Below, piece by piece: positions 1,642 through 59,507 of a DNA stretch of 64,000 bases. The notes beneath the pieces were generated by a model that saw only the letters and a program-made list of their open reading frames with translations, was not told where the DNA came from and did no database searches. Made by a program: the position numbers and the translations under genes. This stretch comes from a virus: positions 1-64,000 of IMG/VR virus record IMGVR_UViG_3300015241_000002; one strand, given 5' to 3'. Numbering within the stretch: the first letter of the stretch is position 1; each line of letters starts with the position of its first letter.

Positions 1642-1928
1642 GAGTATTAAGATATGAAGTTCCTGTTGATGATTTTACACATGTAATTTCTCTATCAGGT
1701 GAAGTGTACCCATTTATCAATGCTTCACACCCACACATTGTCGAATTCTGGTCACTTGACACTGGCGGTCCATCCACAGATAGAAAATTTAGAGTCGTAG
1801 GTACTGGACAGCCGCTTCCAATCTCTGAGTATTGGGAAGGAGATTACGTAGGAACAGCAATCCATATTATAACACCATCTGGACTGCCTGGTTCGCGTTT
1901 GGTATGGCATTTATTTGAAATTAAATAA
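1638..1928 (+). CDS. hypothetical protein
   Basis: 96-aa ORF with an ATGA overlap onto the upstream gene. No motif recognised. Confidence 0.6.
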   Translation: MRVLRYEVPVDDFTHVISLSGEVYPFINASHPHIVEFWSLDTGGPSTDRKFRVVGTGQPLPISEYWEGDYVGTAIHIITPSGLPGSRLVWHLFEIK

Positions 1929-1985
1929 AAAGTCGGGCACGTCCGCTCGCGCATAGGCAAGGACCCCACAGGGAAGGAATAGGTA

Positions 1986-4622: not shown

Positions 4623-6512
4623 AAGCTGTAGATGCCATAAGGCAAGTCAAAGCTCTCAATCCTAAGTTTGTAACTATAGACATAGAATGTGGAATAGAAA
4701 AGGATGCATCGTTTGGACATCCAAATGAGTTCGATCTTTTATGTGTTGGAATAGGATACGCAAAAGGCAAGGTATTAGTTATCGGAGAAAATGCTTTAAA
4801 GAAGGATGAAGTTTTAGAGGAGCTTGGGGATCTTTTACGATCAGTGAGGATTGTTTGCCAAAACGGTAAATTTCGATCTAGCAGGACTCTATCTACATTG
4901 CGGTCCATTAAAATTATGGGCAGACACAATGTTAGCGCATTATGTGCTGGACGAGCGTCCTGGTGTTCATGATCTAGAACAAATGTCTATGGAAGATTTG
5001 GGAAGTCCCAATTGGAAAAATACATTAAATAAATATAAAAAGCCTGGAGAATCGTATGCAGTCATACCGAGAGACGTTCTGTATAAATACAATGCTTTTG
5101 ACGTGGCCAATACATATGATTTAATTGAACTATATTTGATGGAGATTGAAGCCCAACAGGAAAAAGATACTTACTTCTTGCTTCAAGGTAAGATGGTTCC
5201 TGGTAAGACGTTGTTGGACGTTCATGATTTTCTGTGTGAAGTCTCTAACGAGTTAATGTTCGTAGAATTGAATGGAATTGGAATTGACCCAGATTACATT
5301 GACGAGCTGGCTGAGAAACTTGAATTCAATATGGGTAATTTGGAAAGATCCATTAACGATATGCTTCCATGGATTAAGTCTGTGGATGAGGACGGTATAC
5401 CAGATGTTGGCCAGAGAGACTATGATAAAAAACTAGGTGGCGTTAATCCTCGTAGTCCTAAGCAGCTTTTGCAAGTGTTCAAAGATTTTGGAATGTATAC
5501 ACAATCTACTGATGCTGATACATGTAAGATGATTATTGAAGTTAAGGGATTAGATTCTACAATTGGAAGATTTTGCGCAACATTATTACAATATAGAATG
5601 GAAGCTAAAGAATATGGAACCTATGTGGACGGGATACGAAAGCGTATCCTTGCTGGTACCACCAGAGTTTATCCAAGTTTCTTGCTCCATGGAACCACTG
5701 AGGGAAGATTATCATGTAGGAATCCGAATCTCCAGAATGTTCCTAGAAAATCTGCCATCAGAAGACTTTTCGTACCTACGAAATCTGAAAATATCTTCGT
5801 TCAAGCCGACTATTCACAGGCTGAACTTCGAGTCCTATGTTGGCTCGCCGGGGATACTTACTTCACTCCAATTTTCAACGAGGGAATAGAAGATATATTC
5901 GATACTCTTTCTGAAAATGTATTGTTTCCTCAATACCCAAAAGCAACTACAGACAAAGAGTTCTTTAAGGAAGTTAGATCGAAATGGGTCAAACCTTTTG
6001 TGTACGGGTTAGCGTATGGTCGTACTGAACATGGAATTGCAGGAGACATTGAAATTGGAATGACGCTCAACGAAGCTAAGCTAACTATGGATAAATTCAT
6101 GAGTGTTATCCCAGAGATAGTTCGTTGGCAAAAAGACATTAAGAGAATAGTTTCCGGTGGCGGTGACCTAGTTACACCATTTGGTAGGCACAGAAGATTC
6201 CATCTTATCACACGGCAAAATCATGACGATGTAATGCGCACTGGTTTGGCTTTCGTACCTGCAAGTACGTCATCAGATCTATGTCTTAGAGCATTTGCTA
6301 GAATGAACCCAGAGTTTAGAGCTAAAAAAATAGCCGTAGTCCGTAACCTGGTCCATGATAGCGTTATTGCAGAGTGTAATGAAAATGATGCTGAAGAGGT
6401 AGGACAGATAATGACTAAATATATGTTAGATTCAGCCCAAGAGCTTGTTGGGAATTATGTAAAATTTGCAGTGGATGTTGAAACGGGTTTTAGTTGGGGG
6501 GATCTCCATTAA
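4619..6512 (+). CDS. polA: DNA polymerase I (family A, 3'-5' exonuclease plus polymerase domains); reading frame broken by a 1-nt shift near 4868-4874
   Basis: Track ORFs 4619-4972 and 4851-6512 overlap in different frames. The first carries Exo I (VTIDIE) and ends in ...VCQNGKF. The second continues DLAGLY...DTMLAHYVLDE. Polymerase motifs are present: RNPNLQNVP, ADYSQAELRVL (motif A), KPFVYGLAYG (motif B) and LVHDSV (motif C). Confidence 0.85.
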
Positions 6513-8623: not shown

Positions 8624-9217
8624 ATGAAGATTTGGTATGATACAGAATTCTTAGAAGATGGAAAGACTATTGAATTAATATCGATTGGGATGGTTCGTGA
8701 GGACGGAGAAGAATATTACGCAGTCGTTGATGTAGGAGCAATAACGTGGTTACGAATTACTCAGCATGATTGGCTAATGCGAAATGTAATTCCAAGTTTA
8801 CCATTGCAAAATAGAACATCACTCGACACTTGGTTATCTGTTCCAGCCAATTCATACCCCAAGCCGTCAACTAGCCTTCTCTCACTTGATTTTGCAGATT
8901 CAAGAGTGAAGCCTAAGAGAGTAATCGCTAATGAGGTTAGAGATTTCATTAGTGAGGTTGACAGGCCAGAACTATGGGCTTGGTATGCAGCATACGACCA
9001 CGTAGCATTGTGCCAACTGTGGGGTCCTATGGTTGCAATACATGGCACGAAGATTCCATTCTGGACTAGCGATCTCAAGCAAGAATGCAATCGTTTAGGT
9101 AATCCTACAGTTCCGCAACAGTTAGCAGGTCAGCACAATGCTTTAGCAGATGCCAAACACAATCGTGAGATTGATGAATTTTTAATGCAGTATAAGAGTG
9201 TTAAGAGGTCACCATGA
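8624..9217 (+). CDS. 3'-5' exoribonuclease, Rv2179c-like (DEDDh)
   Basis: 197 aa. WYDTEFLEDGKTIELISIGMV, ELWAWYAAYDHVALCQLWGPM and HNALADAKHN closely follow the sequence I remember for M. tuberculosis Rv2179c. Confidence 0.85.
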   Translation: MKIWYDTEFLEDGKTIELISIGMVREDGEEYYAVVDVGAITWLRITQHDWLMRNVIPSLPLQNRTSLDTWLSVPANSYPKPSTSLLSLDFADSRVKPKRVIANEVRDFISEVDRPELWAWYAAYDHVALCQLWGPMVAIHGTKIPFWTSDLKQECNRLGNPTVPQQLAGQHNALADAKHNREIDEFLMQYKSVKRSP

Positions 9218-12512: not shown

Positions 12513-14132
12513 TTATCTCCAGGCGTCGTCGTAGGCATAAGAGAAACCTTCATTGGTAATCGAAGTAGATGAGCCTCCTGGTCTCTGCATAACGATCTGA
12601 TTAGATCCAGATAGTAAGGACCACCAAGTACGTCCTGTAATATACATAGACCAATCGCTACCATCGGAAAGTCTTGTAAGTGTTCGTCTCTTAAGATCTA
12701 ATACATAACCTTCACCAACTGCTGAATTTGCTAGATTTACGCCACCTAATTGATTAATGATTTCTATTCCAATAGTTGCGCCATTTACTGATTTACCAGC
12801 CACAATAGCAAAAAATTCTGGATTGTAAAATTTAAAAAATTGTCCTGGCGTCCCTATATCGGAAGTGTTATATACATTAAAATATATTAGAGGATATGTC
12901 TCTGCATTGCCATTATTGACCAGTGGAGTAGCAATATAATTGGCAATGCCTAGAGTATTTGCTACTCCAAATGTCGTAGCAACTGCATAAGCAACTGAAT
13001 CTTCGTTTTTCATTTGTATTTGGAACGGGGTGGATCCTATAGAACGTACCCTATCCAGGTCGGATTTGAATCCTATGGGCTTGACCATCAAGACACGTGG
13101 ATTTTGCCCAGGTAATTTAAAATAAAATGGTATAGCAACATCAACGGGGCTAGCTGATGTTTTTAATGTATCATAACGAGATTCATTGATGGGCGGGGTA
13201 TCAATTAAGGTTCCATCTATTACGACAGTTTTGCCTAAAGTAAACTTGGCATCAACATAAGAACCATTAGCACCATCTATAGCAGAATCCGATTCTGCAG
13301 CATCCAGATCTACCAGTCCAGTAACTGTATTAATATCATATATAGGTGGCGTTACGTCAGATGGATCATTAAGTAAAATACCGTTATCTGTTAGCTTGAA
13401 AGTCATATCATCCAATTGCACGGTAGGACCATAGAAAGTAATACCTACAGTGTTCCATGCACTAGAGGATGCGAGTGTAGAAGAATAGGTTTCCACCGTG
13501 CCAATACCCACAGGTGTAGTGACCATTGACTGTATTATAGTACCAGTAATAGTGGATGATGTAGTATATGCAACTGGAGGTGTGGTTCGTTGTGCGGTAG
13601 GAGCCGCTCCAGATCTTAGAAAGAACATTGATAATGCATTCGGAGCGGTAAGAGCCGGCATAGTTAATGAAGGAGTAGTACTTGTAGCGGAGTTAGCAGT
13701 TATAGATGAGACACTACTTACATTGTGTACTACATAAGCATGCATGCGAGTGGTACCACTAGTAGTAGTTGCTGATGCAGATCCTATGCCTATAACAGTG
13801 GCCGCCGCAATTCCACTTACCCAAATTCCGGCAAGTCCCATTGAGGCTACTTGTGTGAAAGTTAGCCCCGAACTTCCCACTCCTACCGAAGATACACCAA
13901 CATCCGAAACGGTAACTATAACTACTACATCGCCCTTATATATGACATTGAGGTTACTACCTACATAATTGATACCAATACCGTCTCCACAACTGGCACC
14001 ACTATTAGGCATAGTTTGCGCATTGTTAGACACAGAATTAGATATACCAGAAAAACCAGCTATAATAGCATTACTGATAACAGCCCAACCAATTGATGGA
14101 CTTGTCACACCTGGATAAGTAGTGAGGGCCAT
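12513..14132 (-). CDS. minor tail protein (distal-tail position)
   Basis: 539-aa Ser/Thr/Gly-rich ORF. Its start abuts the tape measure stop (ATG at 14132). The call rests on position. Confidence 0.5.
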   Translation of the reverse strand: MALTTYPGVTSPSIGWAVISNAIIAGFSGISNSVSNNAQTMPNSGASCGDGIGINYVGSNLNVIYKGDVVVIVTVSDVGVSSVGVGSSGLTFTQVASMGLAGIWVSGIAAATVIGIGSASATTTSGTTRMHAYVVHNVSSVSSITANSATSTTPSLTMPALTAPNALSMFFLRSGAAPTAQRTTPPVAYTTSSTITGTIIQSMVTTPVGIGTVETYSSTLASSSAWNTVGITFYGPTVQLDDMTFKLTDNGILLNDPSDVTPPIYDINTVTGLVDLDAAESDSAIDGANGSYVDAKFTLGKTVVIDGTLIDTPPINESRYDTLKTSASPVDVAIPFYFKLPGQNPRVLMVKPIGFKSDLDRVRSIGSTPFQIQMKNEDSVAYAVATTFGVANTLGIANYIATPLVNNGNAETYPLIYFNVYNTSDIGTPGQFFKFYNPEFFAIVAGKSVNGATIGIEIINQLGGVNLANSAVGEGYVLDLKRRTLTRLSDGSDWSMYITGRTWWSLLSGSNQIVMQRPGGSSTSITNEGFSYAYDDAWR

Positions 14133-17100
14133 TAGCCAACTCTCCTACTGAATTCCCAACCTAAGTCGGCTGCATGTTTAACAGGATCAATCTCTTGTGT
14201 TGTTATGTAGAAGTTCTGAGAAGGGCCTGTGCCACGTCCAGGCGTCACGCTGACCGTCTCAGCTCCACGCTCACCCACGCCGATGACGGTAGGCGTGTCG
14301 AATACAGTCGGCGACATCCCACCGCCGTACCAGTGTGGAGAGCGGTTTAGCCAGGTACCATAAGCGTTGGATGGGGAACCATAACGTCCTCTAATATAGT
14401 TGAGACCCCAGTTAATCTGAGTAGCTGGGTTAGTTAACCAGTCGGATCCGGAAGAAGCCATCTTACTAGCAGGGAGTGCCTGAGGAATTCCATAGGCACC
14501 ACTAGATGGATTTTTAGCAAATTGGGACCAGCCAGAATTACCTGTAAGAAAGATTCTTCCATCCTGTTCGGCCGTCCAAGAACCAAGCTCTGTAGTCACA
14601 CACCACACATCTTGTCTTTCTAACAATTTCGTAATTTGGAACTTACTAATATATGGTACTGTCATTCCAATTCTTCCAGCAGACTCCCCATGTGCTGTAC
14701 GTGATGGTTTAAATCCTTCTAAATAAACAGCAAGTTTAATAGCATCTTGCATTTCACCATTATTTTGTGTGATAGTTGTATGCCCACGATCACCATTCTG
14801 CCCTATGCTATGTCCTTCTGCATCTATCATTGCTGCAAGCCATGCAGAACGTTGCTCGATAGATAGTCCTAGTATAAACTGTTCTAGACCATAATCCATA
14901 ATTTGGGATCTTTTTACCAAATCTGTAACGTAATGGCGTGGAAGCAGGAAAATATGTTCTGGAAGCCAATTAGCTTTAGAATTACTGCGATTGGAAATTG
15001 TTTCAGTATAGTCTATACCTACCAACATAGCACGTATTCTAACAATTTGGCTTAACTTGGACTGATAAATTCTACCATCCCACTTACCATTGGATGTTTC
15101 GGTAAGGGTTCCATCTCCCTGTATCCACGCCAATACTGCTGCATCTTGAAGCGAAAGTGTCGGGATGCCATCAGTATTGGCAATGGCGGATAACCGAATT
15201 CGATGACCCCAACGAAGTTCATCTGTTCGTACAAATCCCGGAACTTTCTGCGCCCCGCCCTTTTTAATTACAGATTCCAACGGCTCACTCCACCAACGAT
15301 GGCCAGGAGTTACATCAACTTGCCAATTACGATTTCCTAAACGTTGAACTTCACGGTCTTCGTAATGGACAATACGAGTTATTCGTGTCCACTCGTTGCA
15401 ATCTAAAATAGGATTATAACCAAGTGTTTCGTCCCCAATTTCCACCTCGCCATGAGATAGCCAGCCGCGTTTGGTGAGAATTCGAGTTCGTAGTGGAACA
15501 CATTCGCCATTCCAGAGATTTATAAGGGATCCCATCTGATCTAATCCCCAACCAAATCTACCTAACTGACCCTTAGCATAAGCTTGATTAGCTAGAGCAC
15601 CCGCTCCAGTAACATTTCCTTGAGAACCAACTGACGAAGCCGCAGCTTTCGCAGCAGCCTTACGAGCCTTACCACCCAAATCATCGATCATACTTCTAAT
15701 TACTTGGTCTACCTTTTGATATCCACCACTGGATATATCCTTAATAATTCCACCTGGCATAGATCCAAGTGCAGCCTTAACTGGAGCTTCTGCCAAGTTA
15801 AGACCAGCTCTTAACATGGCTGCAACACCCTTGCGAAGTCCGCCCTCCACAGCGCCGACTGTACTCTTTAGAGCACCAGCAATACCTCCAATTATACCTC
15901 CCCCAATAAACATACCAGACTTGTCCATTGATCTTCTATTGGAAAACATGGAATTTATTCTGTCAATTCCACGCTTTCCGCCAATCGCACGAACAGCTTC
16001 TGGTATTAATATGCCCTCGCCGCCAGAGAACATATAAGCTGGCAACCGTATATTATCCTTACCTGGAGAGTAACCGGGAAGAACTCCACCTCTAGCAAAG
16101 CCTCTAGTATTAGGTGTATGTGCGGGGCCCTTAGCATTAGGGTCAGCAATAGTTCCTATCTTATCAATGTGGAAATGGCCTGGGAGGTGACCAAGCAGAG
16201 CGTTAATTCCACCGATAAAGGCATTGATTACAGAAATTATGCCATTGAGAGCACCTCTAATTGCTCTCTGTACTCCATTCCAAATGCTGGAAAATACATT
16301 TGACATTCCAGACCATAAACTTCTCCAACCATTACTTATGGCAGTAAATGTTGGGCTTATTACGTTACGCCATATAGCCTTAATGGAATTACCTGCCGCT
16401 GTAAATACAGGCTTTCCTATGTTATCCCAAATTCCACGAATTAGATTCCAAGTACCTCTCCAAACTGTAATCATTGCATTCCATATAACTCTGATACTAG
16501 TCCACATAAATTTAATACTAGACAATATGAAATCAAATATGGGTCGGCCTACATTATTCCATGTAGCCTTCATCAAGTTCCAAGTAGCCCTCCATAAACT
16601 GACCTGAGCACGCCAAATAATCTTGACACCGCTCCACATAAATCTAACAGTATCAAGTATAGCAGTAAATATAGGATGGCCTACCGTATTCCAGATAGCA
16701 GAAACAACGTCCCAAGTAATCTGCCATGTCTTTTTTAGAGCCTCAAAAATAAGTTTAATTTGAATACCTAATACAGCATAGAAAAATAATCCAATTCCAC
16801 GGATTACTGGCATGACCGCGTTCCATACATTTATTATAGCATGCCATAAATTACTCCAAGCATGGTCTAAATTATCTAATGCATGTAATACATTGTCAAA
16901 AGAATGCACTACATTCTGCCAAGCGTGCGCTATTGCCATAACAACTTCATTTACAGCCGTACTTATTGCTTTGTATATAGCATCCCAAGTAGACTTAACT
17001 GCATGGTATGCATTATCCCAAGCATGGACAACATTACTAGCTGCATGCGCTACAGCCTTGTAAACATCATTCCAGATCCTTACGGCAAATGACGATATTT

Positions 17101-32068: not shown

Positions 32069-32566
32069 TTAATTTACCTCCGCACAGGTTGCTTCAACAG
32101 TAATTTGATGAATAGCCTCAATAACACCTGGTTTGGGTGTTACTCTAATGACATAGTTATTGAGAGCACTAGCGTCAGTTCCAGCATCCACAACTAGAAA
32201 ATCTGCATTAACTGCATCTCCAGTTTGATACCCACCCGAAATTACTACCGTTCCAGAAGGACATATAACATTGTAGCCATTAGTGTCCCCAGCCATTAAA
32301 TCCACCGAATAGAAATGTCGAACTAGTTGGAAATTTGAAATTCCAACAGGTCCTTGTGGCCCAACAGGTCCAGTCTGATTCCAATTTAAGGAAGTTTCTC
32401 CGGAAGCACAAGTGGAATCAACTACTCGAAGCTTGCCATCGGAAGTTTTATAACAACCATGAATTACTCCACCAGAATCAGGAATGGACGCATAAGCAAA
32501 CGCCCCAACTCCAATACCAATAGCGATTACTGCACTGCCAATTACTAATTTCTTACGTAATCTCAC
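32069..32566 (-). CDS. secreted/membrane-anchored protein with short collagen-like segment
   Basis: 165 aa. The N-terminus is signal/anchor-like (MRLRKKLVIGSAVIAIGIGVGAFAYA). A GPVGPQGPVG triplet run is present. The gene has an ATGA overlap with the portal gene stop. Confidence 0.5.
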   Translation of the reverse strand: MRLRKKLVIGSAVIAIGIGVGAFAYASIPDSGGVIHGCYKTSDGKLRVVDSTCASGETSLNWNQTGPVGPQGPVGISNFQLVRHFYSVDLMAGDTNGYNVICPSGTVVISGGYQTGDAVNADFLVVDAGTDASALNNYVIRVTPKPGVIEAIHQITVEATCAEVN

Positions 32567-34377
32567 TTGCTACCTCCTGAATTATCTCTACCGGCGTTAG
32601 ATTTTTGCTGGCCACTTGGAGGTGGCCCCTGGCGTGGTAATCCAGCTTGGGCACCTCTTTGCTTACGTCCTCTCTTACGTCCTGCGGTAGCGCTCCCAGG
32701 GGCCACAGGAGGGCCTACACCGGTGCTCCCACCACTATTATTTGCGGGTGGTGGAGTAGGAGCTCCAGGCGTATTTTGATTTGTGCCTGTGGGCGGTCCT
32801 TCAATTGGAGTTTGTGGCTCATCACTTCTATTCATTGGAGTAGCTGCAAGACGACGAGTTGCCTTGTCAATAAGTGGCAAATCCATCTCATCGCGAAGCA
32901 TCTCTTCCAGTGGATCATCTGGAATCAAAGCACCAGCACCAATAAGGTTACGAATAGCAAACGACAACGTACGCCAGTCTGCCTGCTCACCAATTCGTCT
33001 TGCTTTAAGCTTAGGAACTCCTACTCGACTAAAGTTTGCGTCTATTATTTTGGGAATGAGATAAGTATTGATAGTCTCACATACAATGTCCGCAATAAAT
33101 CGAGTCGCCTTGAGGAACATCGTTTGATCTTCCTCTTTGGTAGTCGTATCTACACTCATAAACCCCAGTAGGATATTTTCACGAATAGCTTCCTTGTGTT
33201 CCTTAATGGACGCTAAACAATCTACTCTTTGTCCTTCCAACTTAGCAAACATAATATCCCAATTTGGAGGAAGAACAACATGAGCTCTCTCATTGGTTCG
33301 AAGATTTCTACCCATGTTTTCAGCCATAGATTTGTCGCCTTGACTAAATCCTGGGGGCAATTTAATGATAGGTATACCAATTCCATGCCGTTCTTTCTGA
33401 ATAGCATCGATCTTGTAAAGCTGTTCCATGTAGAACCAATGCTTATACGCAGAGCGCAGAACAGAAATGCCTTCGATATCCCCAGCTTCTCTATCGAAAG
33501 TAAATACAATTAGCTTGCTAATTGGTATATCAACTGGCTGCTGCATTCCAGTCGTAGGAGGCAACATAGTAACACCAGCTGGCCCACCATTTTCATCAAA
33601 ATGCCAAGTCCATACATCCAGCGGATGACGTGGTGCTAACTTCTTAACACAAAGCCTTTTCTGCCCATTTACAATCTTTTCTTCCCATACAATCTCAAAC
33701 ATGTAGTAGCCAAACTCGCACATGAGTAGAGACTCTATAAGGAACTGAGGCCAAGTAATAGACATGTGTGTGAGATTATCCCACACAAAGTCAGCCGCAT
33801 TCTTGTCTGCAGTTTTTGTATTGTCATCGGGCTCTACAAACCAACGCGCAGACAAGACAGGAGTTTTTACAGCCCGCAAAGTCCCCTTGACTGTTCCATC
33901 CGATTTTCTCATTTTGTCATATTGCTGTAAACCCTTAATTCCAACAAGGTCTTGATTGTACTCTCTACGAACCCAAGATGTAAATGGACTTACAGATGAA
34001 CTACCAAGCTCTCCGATACTGACATCTGTGTAATCGACAAGTTGCTTTCCCTGTTCCTTAAGGAGATTACCACCTTCATCAACCTTAAGAGACATAGTAG
34101 GTAACGCTAACCCCTTGACATCACTAGAACTTCTATTGCTGCTATTAGCACCACGCTCTGCGACTATAACAAATGGATCCCCATAATTCTCTACAACCTC
34201 GACAAGATCATATCTTTCCATGACAGTAGACAGAGTAGTGTATTGCTTATTCTGCTCAGCTAAACTAAACTCTTTAGTCGCAGTACTAGTAGAAACTTTG
34301 CTATGTCCATTGCTACTAGCCTGCCCATTCTTACCCACAGGACCGTAAGGATTAGAGCGTCGCTTCTTGTTACTCAT
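32563..34377 (-). CDS. portal protein (Mu gp29 / DUF935-like)
   Basis: 604 aa, immediately downstream of TerL. The central region (YDKMRKSDGTVKGTLRAVKTPVLSARWFVEP...) follows the DUF935 portal pattern. The C-terminal tail is basic and Pro/Gly-rich. Confidence 0.8.
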   Translation of the reverse strand: MSNKKRRSNPYGPVGKNGQASSNGHSKVSTSTATKEFSLAEQNKQYTTLSTVMERYDLVEVVENYGDPFVIVAERGANSSNRSSSDVKGLALPTMSLKVDEGGNLLKEQGKQLVDYTDVSIGELGSSSVSPFTSWVRREYNQDLVGIKGLQQYDKMRKSDGTVKGTLRAVKTPVLSARWFVEPDDNTKTADKNAADFVWDNLTHMSITWPQFLIESLLMCEFGYYMFEIVWEEKIVNGQKRLCVKKLAPRHPLDVWTWHFDENGGPAGVTMLPPTTGMQQPVDIPISKLIVFTFDREAGDIEGISVLRSAYKHWFYMEQLYKIDAIQKERHGIGIPIIKLPPGFSQGDKSMAENMGRNLRTNERAHVVLPPNWDIMFAKLEGQRVDCLASIKEHKEAIRENILLGFMSVDTTTKEEDQTMFLKATRFIADIVCETINTYLIPKIIDANFSRVGVPKLKARRIGEQADWRTLSFAIRNLIGAGALIPDDPLEEMLRDEMDLPLIDKATRRLAATPMNRSDEPQTPIEGPPTGTNQNTPGAPTPPPANNSGGSTGVGPPVAPGSATAGRKRGRKQRGAQAGLPRQGPPPSGQQKSNAGRDNSGGSK

Positions 34378-34398: not shown

Positions 34399-35829
34399 TC
34401 AGAATTCCTGACCGCTCTTGGTGAAGTATCCACTAGCGCCTTCTACGTCATAGCCACCGTATTGTTCGCCAGAACTACGAGTTGCTTCTAAATTAAGATC
34501 CATAACATCTGAAAGATGGTAAGTTGCGCCAAGCTTGTAGATATGAACCAAAGCATAGCGTAAAGCATCCATTGCGTGATCGTCTTGCGCTAAGCTCTTC
34601 TCTGGAGCATTTCTACCATTTGGGGGATTGCTTGACTTGTAATTATTAAACTCACGAATCGTGTTGATGCAAGAGAAATCAACGAATATAGCGGGGAAAT
34701 ATATAGGCCCACCGAATTCATCTTCTTTTTCCTCACGTTCCATGAAAGAACGCACTAAGTCTATACCTTCACGCCAGTTGGTTTTAGCTTCTGGCATTGC
34801 ATAACATGGCACAAGCTTTTGCGATATAGTAGCTGCCGCTTCTGGATCTGCCGCATCTCCAAAAGCAAGGTCTAGGTGGTAGCCAAATGGCTGTTCTCTA
34901 GCCTTGAGCTGTTCACAGTGATCTTCTACACGAGTGAAGCTTTTGTAGTGCTCTCTCCAAATATACACTCTATCATCTGGACTTATTTGGAACTCAATTG
35001 CAGCCAGTGGATTCGTATAACCGAAATCAAATGCGATGTAATTTGGCCATAATGGATTAAATTTAATTTCCTTGACGTGCTTACTTATGTCCCATTCAGG
35101 ATATATCTTTCCAACGAAAGAGCCAAAATCCGCGCCAATTTCCTGAGCAAAAGCTTCTGCAGTCATGGTACGACGTAGTAGCTTTATTTCCGAATCAGAC
35201 TCGCCACCAGGATAAACGGATGGATTGTTCCAAGATGGAAAAGACCATGACGCATATTCAGGAACCGAAGGATCATGCCCTAACATCCACAAGTCATACA
35301 GCCAATTGAATCCTTCTGGCGTCGTTACAAAATCTGCACTTCCTCGATGGTCTGCTAATGCAGGTCGAATGAATCGCTCCCATGTATCTAACTGATGCTT
35401 TGCTGCCTCAGACATAATGACATGGTCCAGACCTTCACCAACGAGATTCTCACTATGGTCAGCACTTTTGCACTCAAGTTTAGTGCCCCAAGGAAACTCG
35501 ATCCACATATTCCCTTGCTTTGGAGAGTAAGCTCGCTTTATAGTCTTATCTTGCCCAAGCTTTCTATTTATAATCAAGTCTTGCCAAATAACTCTAAACT
35601 CTTTTTCCGCCAAAGAGTAGACTGGACCGACGATCCAAAACATTTTGTTAGGGAGAAATAACTTAGGTTCTAGATCTTTCCCAGCCATGTGCGACTTGCC
35701 ATATCTTCTACCACATACAGCTACCCTAAATCTGGCATCAGACCTGTGGAACTCTACTTGTCCTGGGTGGGGCTCATAGCCTATCTGCTTAAAGAAGGCT
35801 GCTTTGGAAATAGCTCTATTATTCGCCAT
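34399..35829 (-). CDS. terL: terminase large subunit
   Basis: 476 aa. PHPGQVEFHRS...VAVCGRRYGKS gives a Walker A-like motif. The acidic nuclease-half motifs GDAADPE and DDHAMDALRY are present. The portal gene follows. Confidence 0.9.
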   Translation of the reverse strand: MANNRAISKAAFFKQIGYEPHPGQVEFHRSDARFRVAVCGRRYGKSHMAGKDLEPKLFLPNKMFWIVGPVYSLAEKEFRVIWQDLIINRKLGQDKTIKRAYSPKQGNMWIEFPWGTKLECKSADHSENLVGEGLDHVIMSEAAKHQLDTWERFIRPALADHRGSADFVTTPEGFNWLYDLWMLGHDPSVPEYASWSFPSWNNPSVYPGGESDSEIKLLRRTMTAEAFAQEIGADFGSFVGKIYPEWDISKHVKEIKFNPLWPNYIAFDFGYTNPLAAIEFQISPDDRVYIWREHYKSFTRVEDHCEQLKAREQPFGYHLDLAFGDAADPEAAATISQKLVPCYAMPEAKTNWREGIDLVRSFMEREEKEDEFGGPIYFPAIFVDFSCINTIREFNNYKSSNPPNGRNAPEKSLAQDDHAMDALRYALVHIYKLGATYHLSDVMDLNLEATRSSGEQYGGYDVEGASGYFTKSGQEF

Positions 35830-45275: not shown

Positions 45276-45452
45276 ATGAGCAAGTTCAAAGCTAAGCACC
45301 GACGTAGTAAGCGGCAGATCAAAGCGGCAGAGCGTGCGGCGAACCGATTTAGTGGGTTGCCAAAGCACAGTAACATGCAAGTGAGTGACACTGAGTATCC
45401 AACAGAGCCGTTGCCCTATGTGCGGCTAGATGAACTGTTGGCAACTAAGTAA
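45276..45452 (+). CDS. small basic protein (58 aa)
   Basis: Translated by hand. AAGGTGA precedes the ATG. The product begins MSKFKAKHRRSKRQIKAAERAANRF... Confidence 0.45.
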   Translation: MSKFKAKHRRSKRQIKAAERAANRFSGLPKHSNMQVSDTEYPTEPLPYVRLDELLATK

Positions 45453-45544
45453 GTAAGCAATACGGCAGTAACGCATAGATGGTTCCGAGAGGTTTGACGC
45501 CTATGACTATCGTGCTTACCGGATAGGCTGTAAACGGTAAGGGA

Positions 45545-45631
45545 GTGCATGCTAAGGGAAGACGGGTAAGGCCTGAGAAACAGTAGGGCGCCGTCGACAA
45601 AGTACAGCCCGTTCAAGTCGGGCCATGCACA
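45545..45631 (+). ncRNA. tRNA-like element 1 (acceptor stem and T-arm present, no convincing D or anticodon arms)
   Basis: GTGCATG (45545-45551) pairs perfectly with CATGCAC (45624-45630). The T-arm GCCCG-TTCAAGT-CGGGC (45607-45623) is canonical. I could not fold the 55 nt between them into a cloverleaf. Confidence 0.35.
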
Positions 45632-45961
45632 CTGGAAAGGCTACGCAATACAAAGGCAAGGTGCAAGCTGCCCATTACAGGGCGGAACTTGTGGCGTAGC
45701 AATCCATGCAACGCAAGATAGCAACTTGCGCCAAAGTTATTGATAGGGGCTAGTGCACTAGTCAGACCTAGGGGTGGATAGAGTCGCTTGAGCTAGTAGA
45801 AGCCGCCTAGGCAAATAAATGAATAACGTGGAGGCAGTTCCGTAAACTTGGTAGTTGATAATCGGGCCCACGTATGATCCTTCGTAACTACCAAACACAA
45901 GGCAAGATGGTGCCATAGCTGAAAGCAAGGATACGGTGAGAAATTAGCCTGGCCCTTGTAG

Positions 45962-46016
45962 GTGCGGCCGCTATAGCGGATTGGTTAAGAGTAGGGTTCA
46001 AGTCCCTACCCGCACA
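45962..46016 (+). ncRNA. tRNA-like element 2 (acceptor, mini D-like hairpin and T-arm; anticodon arm missing)
   Basis: GTGCGG (45962-45967) pairs with CCGCAC (46010-46015). A CCGC-TATA-GCGG hairpin is present. AGCGGATTGGTTAAGAG resembles a D-loop sequence. The T-arm is TAGGG-TTCAAGT-CCCTA (45992-46008). The total length is only 55 nt. Confidence 0.35.
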
Positions 46017-46054
46017 CGTAATACAGCGAACCGATCGAAGAGGTGAAGTACACG

Positions 46055-46207
46055 ATGAGCAAGAAAGCACGGCGTAGATTGAAAGATCACACCCGTGGCC
46101 TAAATAGGCACTCCAAAGGTGCAAGCCAACTTGACAAGGAAGTGAGATTACGTCAAGAGCATGCGTTAAATAAAATAACAAAGCCAACGGATCAAAAGCC
46201 AATCTAA
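46055..46207 (+). CDS. small basic protein (50 aa)
   Basis: Translated by hand. GAGGTGAAGTACACG precedes the ATG. The product begins MSKKARRRLKDHTRGLNRHSKGASQ... Confidence 0.45.
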   Translation: MSKKARRRLKDHTRGLNRHSKGASQLDKEVRLRQEHALNKITKPTDQKPI

Positions 46208-46341
46208 CCCACATAAAGTTCGGGCGTCGCTGCTCGTGACTAACGTAACTGAATAGCTAAGTAGAGCTTTGTACTTGCCCCCTGTGGGGGTAGTTAATCG
46301 AAGCCCGAGGGCCGGTTTATAACTATAACAAAGGTAGAATT

Positions 46342-46503
46342 ATGAAGCGCCTTACAAAAGATCTCACCAACCCGCATAAGTATGGTAAATCCAGCGGGGA
46401 CGCCAAGAAGGTTGGGGATAGTAAGACCAACTTCTCTCGCAAAACCGATGGCAAAAGTGGGTACAAGCACGGCTCATTTAGCAATCCACGGAAGCCTAAG
46501 TGA
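46342..46503 (+). CDS. small basic protein (53 aa)
   Basis: Translated by hand. AAGGTAG lies upstream. The product is MKRLTKDLTNPHKYGKSSGDAKKVGDSKTNFSRKTDGKSGYKHGSFSNPRKPK. Confidence 0.4.
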   Translation: MKRLTKDLTNPHKYGKSSGDAKKVGDSKTNFSRKTDGKSGYKHGSFSNPRKPK

Positions 46504-46740: not shown

Positions 46741-46822
46741 GGGGATGTGCTGGAATTGGTTTACAGAGTGCCCTTAAAAGGCATCGCCGAAAGGCTTACG
46801 GGTTCGAATCCCGTCATCCCTA
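46741..46822 (+). tRNA. tRNA-Leu(UAA): tRNA-Leu, anticodon UAA (type II, long variable arm)
   Basis: Cloverleaf folded by hand. The acceptor is GGGGATG/CATCCCT (G1-U72 wobble). The D-arm is CTG-GAATTGGTTTA-CAG. The anticodon arm is GTGCC-CTTAAAA-GGCAT. The variable arm contains GCC-GAAA-GGC. The T-arm is ACGGG-TTCGAAT-CCCGT. CCA is not encoded. Confidence 0.85.
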
Positions 46823-47127
46823 CTGTAGGAAGCAATTAGGTACCTAAGAGAGCGACAGCTAGACCCTACAAAGCTCTAGTGCTTCCGTTGTAGGCTAGTA
46901 AGGTAGTACATACCTGGAAATAACAATAGCTTCCCTGGCTTATTTATAGGTTGGGCAGTCAGGGCAGGGAGCGCGGCTTGGAAAAGTTGCCATGAAAGTT
47001 TGTGGAAAAGCCAGGCTACAGCGATTGCAAAGCATCGTAACGCGCACGAGCTAAGCGTAGGTAGCTACTGTGGTTACTATTTTTTATTATAGGCTACGGT
47101 AAGCTCTTAGCTTGGAGCAAACCCGTT

Positions 47128-49161: not shown

Positions 49162-49235
49162 GGGGGTATAGCTCAGCGGATTAGAGCGAGACTCTTCTAA
49201 AGTCTAGGTCGGGAGTTCGAATCTCCCTACCCCCG
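49162..49235 (+). tRNA. tRNA-Arg(UCU): tRNA-Arg, anticodon UCU
   Basis: Cloverleaf folded by hand. The acceptor is GGGGGTA/TACCCCC. The D-arm is GCTC-AGCGGATTA-GAGC. The anticodon arm is AGACT-CTTCTAA-AGTCT. The variable loop is AGGTC. The T-arm is GGGAG-TTCGAAT-CTCCC. Confidence 0.9.
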
Positions 49236-49276
49236 CGTAACTATTTAAATAAAAACTAAGAGAAAGAAGGTGAACA

Positions 49277-49756: not shown

Positions 49757-50836
49757 ATGAGCCAAGAGACTGTAGCATGGCTCCACAATAACTGTCTGAT
49801 TGGATTTGCAAACAAGCGCGGCAGTGCGTGGTGGTCATCTAGAGGGCTGGATTCTGTTGACGATAACGGAGAGCCTATGCATTACAATGGACCTGTTCCA
49901 TTGGACGACGTAATTCGTCGACTGCCGGCTTTTAATGTTGAAGCTATTTCAGTTCCTGTGACTGCAGTGTATGAGGACGCCGATGGTAACGAGGTTACTT
50001 TGACGGACTCTTCACGACAGGTTATTGTGCGCCCAGATACACAGCACATCCTAGGCGTATTCAAGGATGGCTACGTGGTGCATCAGTATCAAGAGTGGTT
50101 AATCGGATTGGCTAGTAAGTTGCTGGATACTTCAACTAGTGACTTGGGTATTGCCAACGTAGTTACCTTAAAGAATGGTGCTGTTGCGGCAGTGCAATTC
50201 GAGGTGCCGGATACTGTGACGACAAAGCATGGCCTAGAAATTAGACCGTCTTTGCTTATCGTCTCTAGTATGGACGGATCACTGGCAACCATTCCTAAGC
50301 GAGTCGTAACCAACATGGTGTGTGACAACACTATGAAGGCTGGCTTATCTGAAAAGGGCCCGGAAGCTAGAGTCAAGCACACTCGTAATTCTCTCGACAA
50401 ACTCGACGCTATGAGAGCCAAGCTTGAACTGGAATTCATTGCGGACGAGGTTTCAGAGGAATTCAATCGTCTTTGCGAGACTAAGGTTACTGGATTGCAG
50501 TTCAAGCAATTCTTGACTGAGTACCGTATGGCTGAAAACTCAAAAGGATTAGATCCCATGGCGCCCGACGCCGAGGATGGCAGAGCTAAGACTCTTGCTG
50601 AGAATAAGCAAGACAAGCTCATGAGCATGTGGCTTAGTGACGATCGTGTCAGCCCGTGGGCAGGAACGGCTTTTGGTGTGCTACAGTTGACGAATACCTA
50701 CTTGCAGCAGGTGGCACCCACTAACAAGGGGACCATTCGTTACGAGAGAAATGTGCTTGATGCCGCGAGTGGTAAGATCGAGAAATCCGACAAACTCACT
50801 CTAGAAATTCTCGAAAAGGTTTTGGCGGCAGCGTAA
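49757..50836 (+). CDS. DUF932-like protein (phage/plasmid-like protein)
   Basis: 359 aa with AAGGAGG upstream. Its size and N-terminal pattern resemble the DUF932 family common in actinophages. The call is made from memory and is moderately confident. Confidence 0.5.
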   Translation: MSQETVAWLHNNCLIGFANKRGSAWWSSRGLDSVDDNGEPMHYNGPVPLDDVIRRLPAFNVEAISVPVTAVYEDADGNEVTLTDSSRQVIVRPDTQHILGVFKDGYVVHQYQEWLIGLASKLLDTSTSDLGIANVVTLKNGAVAAVQFEVPDTVTTKHGLEIRPSLLIVSSMDGSLATIPKRVVTNMVCDNTMKAGLSEKGPEARVKHTRNSLDKLDAMRAKLELEFIADEVSEEFNRLCETKVTGLQFKQFLTEYRMAENSKGLDPMAPDAEDGRAKTLAENKQDKLMSMWLSDDRVSPWAGTAFGVLQLTNTYLQQVAPTNKGTIRYERNVLDAASGKIEKSDKLTLEILEKVLAAA

Positions 50837-57968: not shown

Positions 57969-59507
57969 ATGTTAGACTTATATCCTTATCAAGAGAACGA
58001 TATCAAGAAACTCTATAGACAAAAAAGTGCAAGTATAGAATCAGAGATGGGCAGTGGCAAGACGCTCGAAGCTATAGCTCTTGAAGAATTGTGGAATCCA
58101 TTGGGAGAGAAGCCTACTCTTGTTATAGCACCAATTAATACGTTTGATACATGGCGCAGTAAGTACGCTATACAGGCTCCTGGTGTGGACTTGATTACTA
58201 TTGATCGTAAGAATGCTGAGACTAGGAACGAATTCCTAAAGAAGATTCAAAAGCGTCAAGGTGACGTATTCCTTATGCATTACGAAGCCGTTCCATTGAT
58301 GCCAAAATTACAGAAAATTGAATTTGAAGTAATTATATGCGATGAAGCACACAGACTTAGCAATTGGCGAATCAAGAGGACGCAAGCTGTAAAGAGGCTA
58401 AAGACGAATCATAAGCTTGCAATGTCTGGGACCATGACTGGAGAATACCCGGATAGGCTATGGAGTATATATGAATGGTTATGGCCTGAGTACTTTACTT
58501 CCTACTGGAGCTTTCGTAAGCGCTTTTGTGAGGAAGAGGAAGTATGGAGTGAGAAAAGACAGACTTATTATACCACAGTTGTTGGAACTAAAAATATAGA
58601 TATACTGAACGACATTCGTGATCCTTGGAGAGTGCGGCATCTCAAGAGAGAACAGTGCTGTTCGAACCATCTTAATGGGATTATGAACTGGCTGCCTGAC
58701 AAGACGTACGACGATCCTATCATGGTAGATCTTTCGCCGACACAGAGAAACTTCTATGATCAGATGGAAGCTAGCATGATTGCATGGATTGGGGAGAATC
58801 AGAACGAGCCACTTGTAGCTCAAGTAGTTATTGCTCAGCTAACCAGGCTTAATCAAATGGCATTGGCTACTCCAGAGTTCTATACCAAGTTGGTATGGAC
58901 TCCATACTATGAGCGTGAGCATGACCAAAATGGTAAGAGAATAAGTGAACCAGAGACTCCTATTATTAACCCTATTACTGGACTGGTTGAGAAGCATAGA
59001 GTACCAATTCAAGCAATCAAGCTAAAGGCTCCATCAAGTAAGATCGAAGCATGTATTGACTTTATCAAGGATCATGCTTCTCAACCATTAGTTGTATTTA
59101 GTTCTTCTAAGAAAGTGTGTTACTTAGCTCAGGAAGAATTTGCAAAACAGCATATTACTTCTGAGGTCCTAAGTGGAGATACACCACAGTCTCAAAGAGA
59201 CGGAATGGTGAAGCGTTTCAATAATGGAGATTTCCAAGTATTCATTGGAGTAATTGAAGCTGCGGCTGAGGGAATTGATGAGCTACAATTAACATGTGAT
59301 ACCATGATTTTCTTAGACAGATCTTGGAGAACAATTAAGAACAAGCAAGCAGAAGAAAGACTAGATCGTCCGGGCCAAAAGAATACAACTAGAGTCATTG
59401 ATATTCAAGCTCGTGGTACTAGAGATGCTGGAAGAAAGCAGCAACTCGAACTTAAGTGGGAAAATATCCGCAGTATGCTTGGTGACCCTACATTAGGAGA
59501 CAAATAA
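57969..59507 (+). CDS. SNF2/DEAH-box superfamily-2 helicase
   Basis: 512 aa with GAGGTGAA upstream. Motif I is EMGSGKT and motif II is CDEAHRL. The C-terminal helicase domain contains GIDELQ...DRSW...QAEERLDRPGQ. Confidence 0.85.
   Translation: MLDLYPYQENDIKKLYRQKSASIESEMGSGKTLEAIALEELWNPLGEKPTLVIAPINTFDTWRSKYAIQAPGVDLITIDRKNAETRNEFLKKIQKRQGDVFLMHYEAVPLMPKLQKIEFEVIICDEAHRLSNWRIKRTQAVKRLKTNHKLAMSGTMTGEYPDRLWSIYEWLWPEYFTSYWSFRKRFCEEEEVWSEKRQTYYTTVVGTKNIDILNDIRDPWRVRHLKREQCCSNHLNGIMNWLPDKTYDDPIMVDLSPTQRNFYDQMEASMIAWIGENQNEPLVAQVVIAQLTRLNQMALATPEFYTKLVWTPYYEREHDQNGKRISEPETPIINPITGLVEKHRVPIQAIKLKAPSSKIEACIDFIKDHASQPLVVFSSSKKVCYLAQEEFAKQHITSEVLSGDTPQSQRDGMVKRFNNGDFQVFIGVIEAAAEGIDELQLTCDTMIFLDRSWRTIKNKQAEERLDRPGQKNTTRVIDIQARGTRDAGRKQQLELKWENIRSMLGDPTLGDK

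Follow-up and report, generated by a model that had tools for sequence, protein, structure and literature searches.

A conserved noncoding RNA island with two tRNA-like modules lacking anticodon arms in the early region of a soil phage

RNAs that resemble part of a transfer RNA (tRNA) are known as tRNA-like processing signals or mimics from t-elements, mascRNA, the tRNA-like domain of transfer-messenger RNA (tmRNA) and Y RNAs. In plant mitochondria the t-elements, which keep a conserved T arm, are cleaved by RNase P and RNase Z, receive a partial CCA and define the 5' and 3' ends of mRNAs (PMC1920247). RNase P measures the length of the 12-bp stack formed by acceptor and T stem (PMC4919913), and the Y RNA YrlA of Mycobacterium smegmatis is cleaved by RNase P and has CCA added when its acceptor stem is 7 bp (PMC4201824). 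In phages, theta ribozymes, which are similar to that of hepatitis delta virus (HDV), mature the 3' ends of tRNAs and are found mostly beside tRNA-Met, tRNA-Sup and tRNA-Leu (PMC10879173). Here we describe two tRNA-like modules without anticodon arms in an uncultured tailed phage, IMG/VR record IMGVR_UViG_3300015241_000002, of which positions 1 to 64,000 were analyzed (hereafter the window). The modules lie in a segment at 45453-46054, which is one conserved noncoding RNA island in a + strand early operon and neither an empty spacer nor a tRNA graveyard.

Two tRNA-like modules in a conserved RNA island

Both modules have an acceptor stem that is contiguous with a consensus T arm carrying the loop UUCAAGU (Table 1). 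Acceptor and T stem measure 7+5 bp in module 1 and 6+6 bp in module 2, and both modules therefore give a tRNA-like coaxial stack of 12 bp. In both of them the discriminator A is followed by a C, and a G-C pair closes the T stem at the loop (tRNA position G53-C61). Between acceptor and T arm, module 1 has a variable insert of 55 nt that contains a hairpin (GACGG..CCGUC), and module 2 has a short hairpin followed by the D-loop-like sequence AUUGGUUAAGA; the sequence AGCGGATTGG is found at 45975-45984. Judged from the sequence, each module reads as a tRNA-derived top half, with the acceptor on the T arm, a short G-rich substitute for the D-loop and a hypervariable insert in place of the anticodon arm. 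A preliminary description of the segment had reported the two T arms with the loop TTCAAGT and the pairing acceptor strands, and all its statements about the sequence were correct.

The modules are real and far beyond chance. Both strands of the 64 kb were scanned for a perfect 5-bp Watson-Crick stem around a TTCRANN loop, with block shuffles as control. Four T arms were found where 0.33 were expected, all on the + strand, and all four were paired with an acceptor (0.04 expected in shuffles). These four sites are the tRNA-Leu, the tRNA-Arg, module 1 and module 2. As a whole, the 602-nt segment is no more stable than its shuffled versions (z = +0.36); the signal is therefore one of local elements and of conservation rather than of overall stability.

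Neither module is a full cloverleaf, as had been noted before: ARAGORN was silent at its default settings, no match to the tRNA model RF00005 was obtained at E<=10, and constrained folds of the module family showed no common anticodon arm. At an 80% threshold ARAGORN gave only a badly mismatched "tRNA-Pro" on module 2, in which the acceptor itself is mismatched. By ARAGORN and the Rfam gathering score, the only canonical tRNAs of the window are Leu(UAA) and Arg(UCU). Rfam 15 gave no match to the modules, the pseudoknot or the core, and no tmRNA match to either module at E<=10; its mascRNA model matched weakly (14.1 bits) to the T arm of module 2 only. The anatomy that defines t-elements was found: a non-canonical tRNA-like fold with conserved T arm and acceptor, predicted to lie within a longer transcript and close to mRNA ends.

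The island begins directly 3' of the stop codon of an open reading frame (ORF) of 58 amino acids (aa; 45276-45452). The preliminary description had reported no + strand ORF of 60 aa or more in the segment; from 45453 to 46042 there is not even one of 25 aa. The order of elements is a 5' leader, an H-type pseudoknot, the long module, a core of about 330 nt, the mini module and a ribosome-binding site. In the leader, the blocks AAGCAAYACGGCA and AACGCAY.GAU are followed by a variable hairpin, which differs entirely among relatives, and by GCC..GUGACU. The next small ORF starts at ATG 46055 (it is listed from GTG 46043 to 46207), and 38 nt, with the ribosome-binding site in between, separate A46016 from this ATG. 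In four sequences every cell of the pseudoknot was paired (100%), and three of its pairs had changes on both sides, against none in slid controls; CUACC/GGUAG, CUGUC/GACAG and CUCACCG/CGGUGAG are among its compensated forms.

Strong conservation was observed in contig L005 (a Logan contig), which was reached via the protein of 179 aa encoded upstream; the two homologues are 51% identical, and no gene is called downstream in L005. The contig aligns to window positions 45453-45816 with identical blocks of 20-49 nt. Since the RNA blocks are identical while the protein is at 51%, this is a noncoding RNA under selection. The differences fall in hairpins, where CGCAAG/CUUGCG is replaced by CCUAAG/CUUGGG and, by eye, GGCUAG/CUAGUC (45748-63) by GACAG/CUGUC. 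RNAalifold gave 44 pairs in the core, three of them with changes on both sides. In module 1 the acceptor is identical and the T stem has changed in a compensatory way (GCCCG/CGGGC to GUCCG/CGGAC), while the insert has been wholly replaced (35 nt vs. 55 nt) between identical flanks. A homologous island in contig L010 has the same 5' blocks and pseudoknot, is shorter and ends with a mini module; its slot for module 1 is occupied by a stem without a T arm.

Several described RNA classes were considered and rejected. A tmRNA does not fit, as position 3-70 is G-C in both modules (no G3:U70) and neither ARAGORN nor Rfam made a tmRNA call; for a permuted tmRNA there were only implausible calls at lowered ARAGORN thresholds. 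For Y RNAs we used published criteria, namely a Ro60 gene within a few kb, the motif GNCGAA(N)G near the 5' end and a closed acceptor-like stem (PMC4201824). The motif is absent from 45453-46060, the termini form an acceptor stem, and there is no TROVE domain among the scanned window proteins, a subset of the ORFs. Conserved blocks resemble, at eye level, CR-I to CR-V of the E. coli RNase P RNA (M1) and in the same order, a likeness that is not significant: a 641-nt search gave no Rfam match at E<=10, no convincing P4 helix could be drawn by hand, a local alignment to M1 was no better than 93 of 300 shuffles, and L010 is without those blocks. The Pistol ribozyme model (RF02679) had no match in the window. 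Finally, AAGGGAG in the leader followed by AUG/GUG in the acceptor stem resembles a ribosome-binding site with a start codon. The insert lengths are 0, 1 or 2 mod 3, and therefore no reading frame crosses the modules; in the window the module 1 AUG frame stops after six codons. A conserved small protein, which the preliminary description had named as something that could explain the region, is in this way ruled out.

Table 1. Positions of the island elements and other features in the window, and of modules in related contigs (distinguished by their L numbers)
Feature	Position	Strand	Basis or remarks
5' conserved leader	45453-45506	+	kept in L005 and L010/L011
H-type pseudoknot	45507-45541	+	precedes module 1; S1 CUAUC 45507-45511 / GAUAG 45522-45526; S2 CUUACCG 45515-45521 / CGGUAAG 45535-45541; linker GCUGUAAA 45527-45534
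Linker GGA	45542-45544	+	makes up the leader motif GUAAGGGA when joined to the end of S2
Module 1, long tRNA-like module	45545-45631	+	87 nt; acceptor, T arm and covariance model; acceptor 7 bp GTGCATG 45545-45551 / CATGCAC 45624-45630; insert 45552-45606; T arm GCCCG-TTCAAGT-CGGGC 45607-45623; discriminator A 45631
Conserved structured core	45632-45961	+	about 330 nt; identical blocks vs. L005, RNAalifold; helices UGGA 45633-36 / UCCA 45703-06, GCUACGC 45640-46 / GCGUAGC 45694-700, UACAA 45649-53 / UUGUG 45689-93; hairpins CUGCCC 45668-73 / GGGCGG 45680-85, CGCAAG 45712-17 / CUUGCG 45725-30, GGCUAG 45748-53 / CUAGUC 45758-63; stem CCUAGGGGU 45767-75 / GCCGCCUAGG 45802-11
Module 2, mini tRNA-like module	45962-46016	+	55 nt; acceptor, T arm and analogues in relatives; acceptor 6 bp GTGCGG 45962-45967 / CCGCAC 46010-46015; hairpin CCGC-UAUA-GCGG 45968-79; D-loop-like stretch 45980-90; T arm TAGGG-TTCAAGT-CCCTA 45992-46008, stem extendable to 6 bp (GTAGGG 45991-45996 / CCCTAC 46004-46009); discriminator A 46016
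5' untranslated region	46017-46054	+	precedes next small ORF; ribosome-binding site GAAGAGGUGAAG 46036-46047
tRNA-Leu(taa)	46741-46823	+	ARAGORN, Rfam gathering score
Pseudoknotted 3' trailer	46823-46890	+	78% identity to L007 775-860; P1 CUGU 46823-26 / ACAG 46855-58; P2 GGAAGC 46828-33 / GCUUCC 46881-86
Degenerate third module	about 46968-47047	+	positional homologue of intact L007 869-952
tRNA-Arg(tct)	49162-49236	+	ARAGORN, Rfam gathering score
DUF932	49757-50836		protein scan
SNF2 helicase	57969-59507		in early/replication gene block
DNA polymerase A	4851-6512		protein scan
Long module	L005 1126-1192		relaxed scan/reading
Long modules	L007 707-775, 869-952		relaxed scan/reading
Long modules	L010 4002-4081, 13376-13462		relaxed scan/reading
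Long module	L012 4486-4566		relaxed scan/reading
Long module	L013 2244-2313		relaxed scan/reading
Long module	L016 2880-2959		relaxed scan/reading
Long modules	L017 12072-12155, 12243-12312		relaxed scan/reading
Mini module	L008 3533-3581		same TAGGG/CCCTA T stem as module 2
Mini module	L007 1124-1178		scan/reading
Mini module	L010 2426-2478		3' end of homologous island
Mini module	L013 683-743		scan/reading
Mini module	L016 about 1927-1966		scan/reading
Further module	L027 4682-4764		IMG/VR, shares the 20-mer CCGTTCRAGTCGGGCCAYGC

The module family and neighbouring elements

Modules of this kind are found again in nine or more related soil-phage contigs, where they form two size classes, long (67-87 nt) and mini (44-61 nt). 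Relatives were reached via homologues of the DUF932 protein (contigs L007-L020), in addition to L005, and related elements were found by nhmmer in L010/L011, L013/L014, L012, L017, L016 and L007. The shared anatomy comprises an upstream hairpin, a leader motif in front of most long modules (GUAAGGGA in the window, and in relatives ..AAGG(G)UA; columns 8-14 of our alignment A3), an acceptor GCGYRUG/CAYRCGC, a variable insert and a T arm with the consensus GYCCG-UUCRAGU-CGGRC. Acceptor and T stem add up to 12 bp (7+5 or 6+6) in nearly all copies. The discriminator of the long modules is A in 10 of 12 and G in the other two, and the base after it is C in all 12; the canonical tRNAs of the window and the L007-L017 contigs have this C in 12 of 16 cases, and L016 encodes ACCA.

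Across the 12 long modules 98.6% of the cells were paired and 10 of the 12 pairs had changes on both sides, as compared to at most two in slid controls. The paired segments thus covary in relatives, which bears out the suggestion in the preliminary description of mimics of the acceptor/T-arm minihelix type. This was further supported by a covariance model made from the long-module alignment (R1): it scored the members at 54-77 bits and module 1 at 75 bits, ignored the canonical tRNAs of the family contigs, and added two candidates (L016 1913-1972 and L009 638-723) to those of the pairing scan. Module 2 is backed by its analogues and by the layout of the L010 island. The inserts (35-55 nt) cannot be aligned even between the window and L005 despite the near-identical flanks.

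The modules also share their position: in 9 of 11 islands, 25-63 nt lie between the end of the last module and the start codon that follows. Pseudoknot and core are absent from L007, L008 and L009, and modules stand alone, without either of them, in L012, L016, L017, L007 and L027. The 20-mer CCGTTCRAGTCGGGCCAYGC, which covers the T arm and the 3' acceptor strand, is that of canonical phage tRNA-Met(CAU) genes in IMG/VR. In 185,579 species-representative bacterial genomes it matches no tRNA gene, only chance sites within ORFs. From their sequence, the long modules seem to derive from a phage gene of the tRNA(CAU) type and not to be copies of a host attachment site (attB). One family member in L008 (10355-10426), with the family leader and acceptor, is still a cloverleaf with a CUA anticodon (ARAGORN). 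This gene reads UAG (anticodon cta), and a tRNA that reads UAA (anticodon tta) was called by ARAGORN at L010 6029-6106; both are below the Rfam gathering score. A 104-nt element at L016 12139-12242, with a canonical D arm (TAGCTCAAATGGTTAGAGCG), a T arm and a 7-bp acceptor, has about 50 nt in the place of the anticodon arm. It received no ARAGORN or Rfam call and may be an intron-containing or insert-bearing tRNA.

The tRNA-Leu of the window belongs to the same RNA island, and a pseudoknotted trailer comes after it here and after long modules in L007 (775-860) and L017 (12155-12232). Its 13 pairs were 100% paired, two of them changed on both sides, in a comparison of only three sequences, and Rfam gave no match, the HDV family included. 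Because the trailer is common to them, tRNAs and modules precede the same downstream element, and its sequence makes the trailer a candidate ribozyme of tRNA 3' trailers or a processing signal. Further downstream lies a third module, a truly decayed copy and thereby an example of real decay: of its acceptor a GCGCG/CGCGC remnant persists, CGAU-UGCAAAGC-AUCG stands where the T loop has been lost, and its flanks align at 74-78% to L007 while the module region itself has diverged.

Other RNA elements were noticed in these regions. A Pistol self-cleaving ribozyme (69.7 bits, E about 1e-12) lies at L017 11801-11869, in the same gene-free island and about 200 nt upstream of two modules. In the same 76-kb contig, and in L018, a 2.3-kb stretch (L017 6285-8634) between a primase-like block and small ORFs is nearly gene-free, with one 31-aa call in L017 only. 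In L010, a gene-free stretch of 1.3 kb (13069-14349) upstream of a Ro60/TROVE gene holds a tRNA-Arg and the long module 13376-13462, together with five copies of a repeat of the form GGGUCGAAGU/GGGUCGGAGU..UUGGUUAAC. Two of these (GGGUCGAAGU and GGGUCGAAUG) carry the published Ro-binding motif GNCGAA(N)G, and the stretch is probably an array of phage Y RNAs. In the window itself, positions 46220-46330 are gene-free; CCCCCUGUGGGGG forms a hairpin there, TTCGGGC..GCCCGAG can pair, and L007 (643-669) has kept the block GCCCGAGGGCCG..TTATAA of this stretch.

The window has a terminase (34399-35829), a portal protein (32563-34377) and a head protease on the - strand, and a long run of small early and replication genes on the + strand from about 40 kb, with which the SNF2 helicase, DUF932 and DNA polymerase A genes (Table 1) are grouped. 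Three tiny ORFs rich in Lys and Arg flank the RNA island (45276-45452, 58 aa; 46055-46207, 50 aa; 46342-46503, 53 aa), for which no family or indexed homologue was found; L005 has a diverged counterpart of the 58-aa ORF at the corresponding position, and L012 (4275-4430) may have one too. A 197-aa protein encoded at 8624-9217 (+) has an Rv2179c-like 3'-5' exoribonuclease domain (PF16473, E=2.7e-13) and is, from this domain, a possible phage enzyme that trims the 3' ends of RNA. The near-identical contigs L001-L004 (99.96-100% identity) derive from soil metagenomes; they are the same phage and added no diversity. The closest DUF932 homologues with an organism name were from Nocardia and Mycobacterium, and together these features suggest an AT-richer phage of a high-GC actinobacterial host. 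INPHARED held no DNA-level relative, giving only tRNA-Leu matches or nothing, and two flanking proteins had no match in IMG/VR. The exact RNA blocks had no match in IMG/VR or in GTDB genomes, and a metagenome scan gave a single match, by chance, inside a transporter gene.

Possible functions of the modules and the island

The features under selection are those that tRNA-maturation enzymes read, namely the 12-bp stack, the T loop, the discriminator and the following C, while the anticodon side is free to vary. On the grounds of this anatomy, the position before start codons and the precedent of t-elements and YrlA, we propose that the modules may serve as tRNA-derived handles for host RNase P, RNase Z and CCA-adding enzyme, a reading to which we assign a probability of roughly 50%. 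The tRNA-maturation enzymes of the host would recognize the top halves: RNase P would generate the 5' ends of the modules by cuts at 45544/45545 and 45961/45962, and on the 3' side RNase Z or exonucleases would trim the RNA back to A45631 and A46016 for completion by the CCA-adding enzyme. In this way the early transcript would be converted to a 5' piece with the pseudoknot, two small stable tRNA-like RNAs, the 330-nt core RNA and an mRNA with a short, defined 5' untranslated region. Transcription, cleavage, CCA addition and a benefit for the phage are what we infer from anatomy, position and precedent. The Pistol ribozyme in L017, maybe the trailer and the exoribonuclease of the window fit a theme of RNA processing and prove nothing.

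A number of points weigh against processing handles. The cleavage is wholly a matter of inference, and no gene follows directly after module 1. Handles alone leave the strong conservation of core and pseudoknot unexplained, so something else in the island is functional. The core is covered by one diverged homologue, L005, that ends at about window position 45816, and 45817-45961 has no homologue in hand. The covariation count is partly circular, as members were chosen by a scan that requires pairing, although this is offset by nhmmer, which independently recovered several of the same elements in five contigs, and by the two additional candidates of model R1. The formal count also covers long modules only, since MAFFT left the 5' strands of the mini modules unaligned. 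Furthermore, a scan restricted to sigma-70-type signals detected neither promoter nor terminator on the + strand, and its counts were not above shuffles.

Possibly, the processed and CCA-tailed top halves act in trans, either as decoys or sponges for host factors that target the acceptor end or the elbow, or as minihelices that can be charged. Toxins that modify the acceptor end exist in Actinobacteria, and the targets could for example be nucleotidyltransferase or pyrophosphokinase toxins of abortive infection, with the insert as a feature of specificity or evasion. This would agree with the free acceptor end, the canonical T loop, the retained D-loop-like GG, the several copies per genome and a turnover of inserts between close relatives that is rapid as in an arms race, and the related phage L010 encodes Ro60/TROVE, a binder of tRNA-like Y RNAs (PMC4201824). 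We regard such mimics as rather unlikely, as no partner protein was identified in the window, the modules are without G3:U70 and without the G-1 identity element, and both the fixed position close to ribosome-binding sites and the trailers common with real tRNAs would be left unexplained. A trans-acting role is compatible with, and not exclusive of, processing handles. The very strong conservation of pseudoknot and core could instead mean that the whole island, about 560 nt, is a single structured RNA with the role of a ribozyme, of a riboregulator or of a scaffold for protein, and that T-loop hairpins and terminal stems in it are purely structural, like the T-loop motifs in RNase P and rRNA. 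In agreement with this, the L010 island has retained 5' domain and 3' mini module on either side of a T-arm-less stem, and self-cleaving ribozymes occur in sister islands. Nevertheless, modules occur alone in other phages and positions, one kind of module precedes the trailer that follows the tRNA-Leu of the window, and the segment has no Rfam family, no folding excess over shuffles and no significant likeness to RNase P RNA; a single RNA with purely structural modules is in our view doubtful.

The preliminary description had also offered decayed tRNA genes as an explanation, that is, neutral and functionless remnants of a phage tRNA cluster. The region does bear tRNAs, the long modules have a phage tRNA(CAU)-like ancestry and a clearly degenerate copy lies downstream of the tRNA-Leu. 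However, perfect 12-bp stacks and T loops are kept by compensatory changes while flanking proteins drop to 51%, the top half is under purifying selection with only the insert drifting, and a conserved leader motif is not expected under neutrality, which makes decay an improbable origin of the two modules. Phage attachment sites (attP) often contain the T arm and the 3' acceptor segment of a host tRNA, and modules of such an origin would be copies of a host tRNA 3' end. To this we give hardly any credence: the modules have a 5' acceptor strand that covaries, each genome carries many copies, the 20-mer scanned, that of the long modules, matches no bacterial tRNA gene, and no integrase is found among the scanned window proteins, a subset of the ORFs. 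Taken together, the preliminary description stands with respect to its tRNA mimics and to modules that are parts of a larger structured RNA, here one with a pseudoknot and a folded core, and falls with respect to decay; the pseudoknot, the core, the family and the position near ribosome-binding sites were absent from it.

Beyond processing handles as such, we tentatively raise the possibility that the island of about 560 nt, with its pseudoknot domain and 330-nt core, represents a new class among the large structured RNAs of phages, whose pieces are excised because tRNA-derived handles bracket them, as a natural "tRNA-RNA-tRNA" array. The core could then be a new ribozyme, scaffold or regulator, and the insert-bearing RNAs could also act in trans, for example as defence decoys.

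Relation to known systems

While the kind of element is known, a full-text search of the literature found no description of families of anticodon-less tRNA-like modules in phages. What appears to be new is the occurrence in phages, the division into two size classes, the leader motif, the hypervariable insert and the association of such modules with a pseudoknot and a conserved core. The tRNA genes of phages are usually viewed as tools for codon usage or against defence; this lineage would have kept only the half of the tRNA that is read by processing enzymes, multiplied it and set it before genes and around a folded RNA. If true, this is a bacterial-virus counterpart of mitochondrial tRNA punctuation and of t-elements, it accounts for a share of the intergenic stretches that look "empty" in the early regions of phages, and it offers natural, compact handles (44-87 nt) for RNase P and RNase Z in multiplexed RNA expression. 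Pseudoknot, core and trailer are unexplored structured RNAs. Since a sister genome has a known self-cleaving ribozyme next to such RNAs, a search for new ribozymes could well start from the islands.

Compared to theta ribozymes, the trailer is found with the same tRNA types and has a similar crossing P1/P2 topology. HDV-like ribozymes are nested double pseudoknots with a P1 of 6-7 bp, P1.1, P3 and a catalytic C in J4/2. In the three trailer sequences P1 has only 4 bp (P2 6 bp), Rfam gave no HDV-family match, and P1.1 and the catalytic C of J4/2 were not identified. The tRNA-like domain of tmRNA is similar to the modules in combining an acceptor and a T arm with a stemless D-loop substitute, in lacking an anticodon arm and in having pseudoknots in the same RNA, whereas the modules have neither G3:U70 nor a tag frame and each closes on itself within 55-87 nt. 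The Y RNAs YrlA and YrlB are likewise noncoding RNAs that mimic tRNA, and they also occur in actinophages (PMC4201824). In YrlA the ends of the RNA itself form the Ro60-binding stem with GNCGAA(N)G, and the D and T arms flank an acceptor-like stem that is closed into a stem-loop (PMC4201824); in the phage modules, unlike in YrlA, the RNA ends form the acceptor stem, and no Rfam Y RNA match was obtained. The mascRNA of MALAT1 is a tRNA-like element that lets RNase P and RNase Z excise a neighbouring RNA and is without homology to the modules. This is also true for the tRNA-miRNA units of gammaherpesvirus-68 and the species 1 and 2 RNAs of phage T4, which are tRNA-like processing handles.

The closest match to the way the modules work is probably found in the t-elements, judging by the shared anatomy. 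Their folds, too, are tRNA-like yet non-canonical, the T arm being perfectly conserved and joined by an acceptor stem, and they lie inside longer transcripts, adjoining mRNAs (PMC1920247). They belong to another domain of life and are of independent origin, and to their plan the phage modules, known here from sequence, add a leader motif, hypervariable inserts, a pseudoknot and a folded core.

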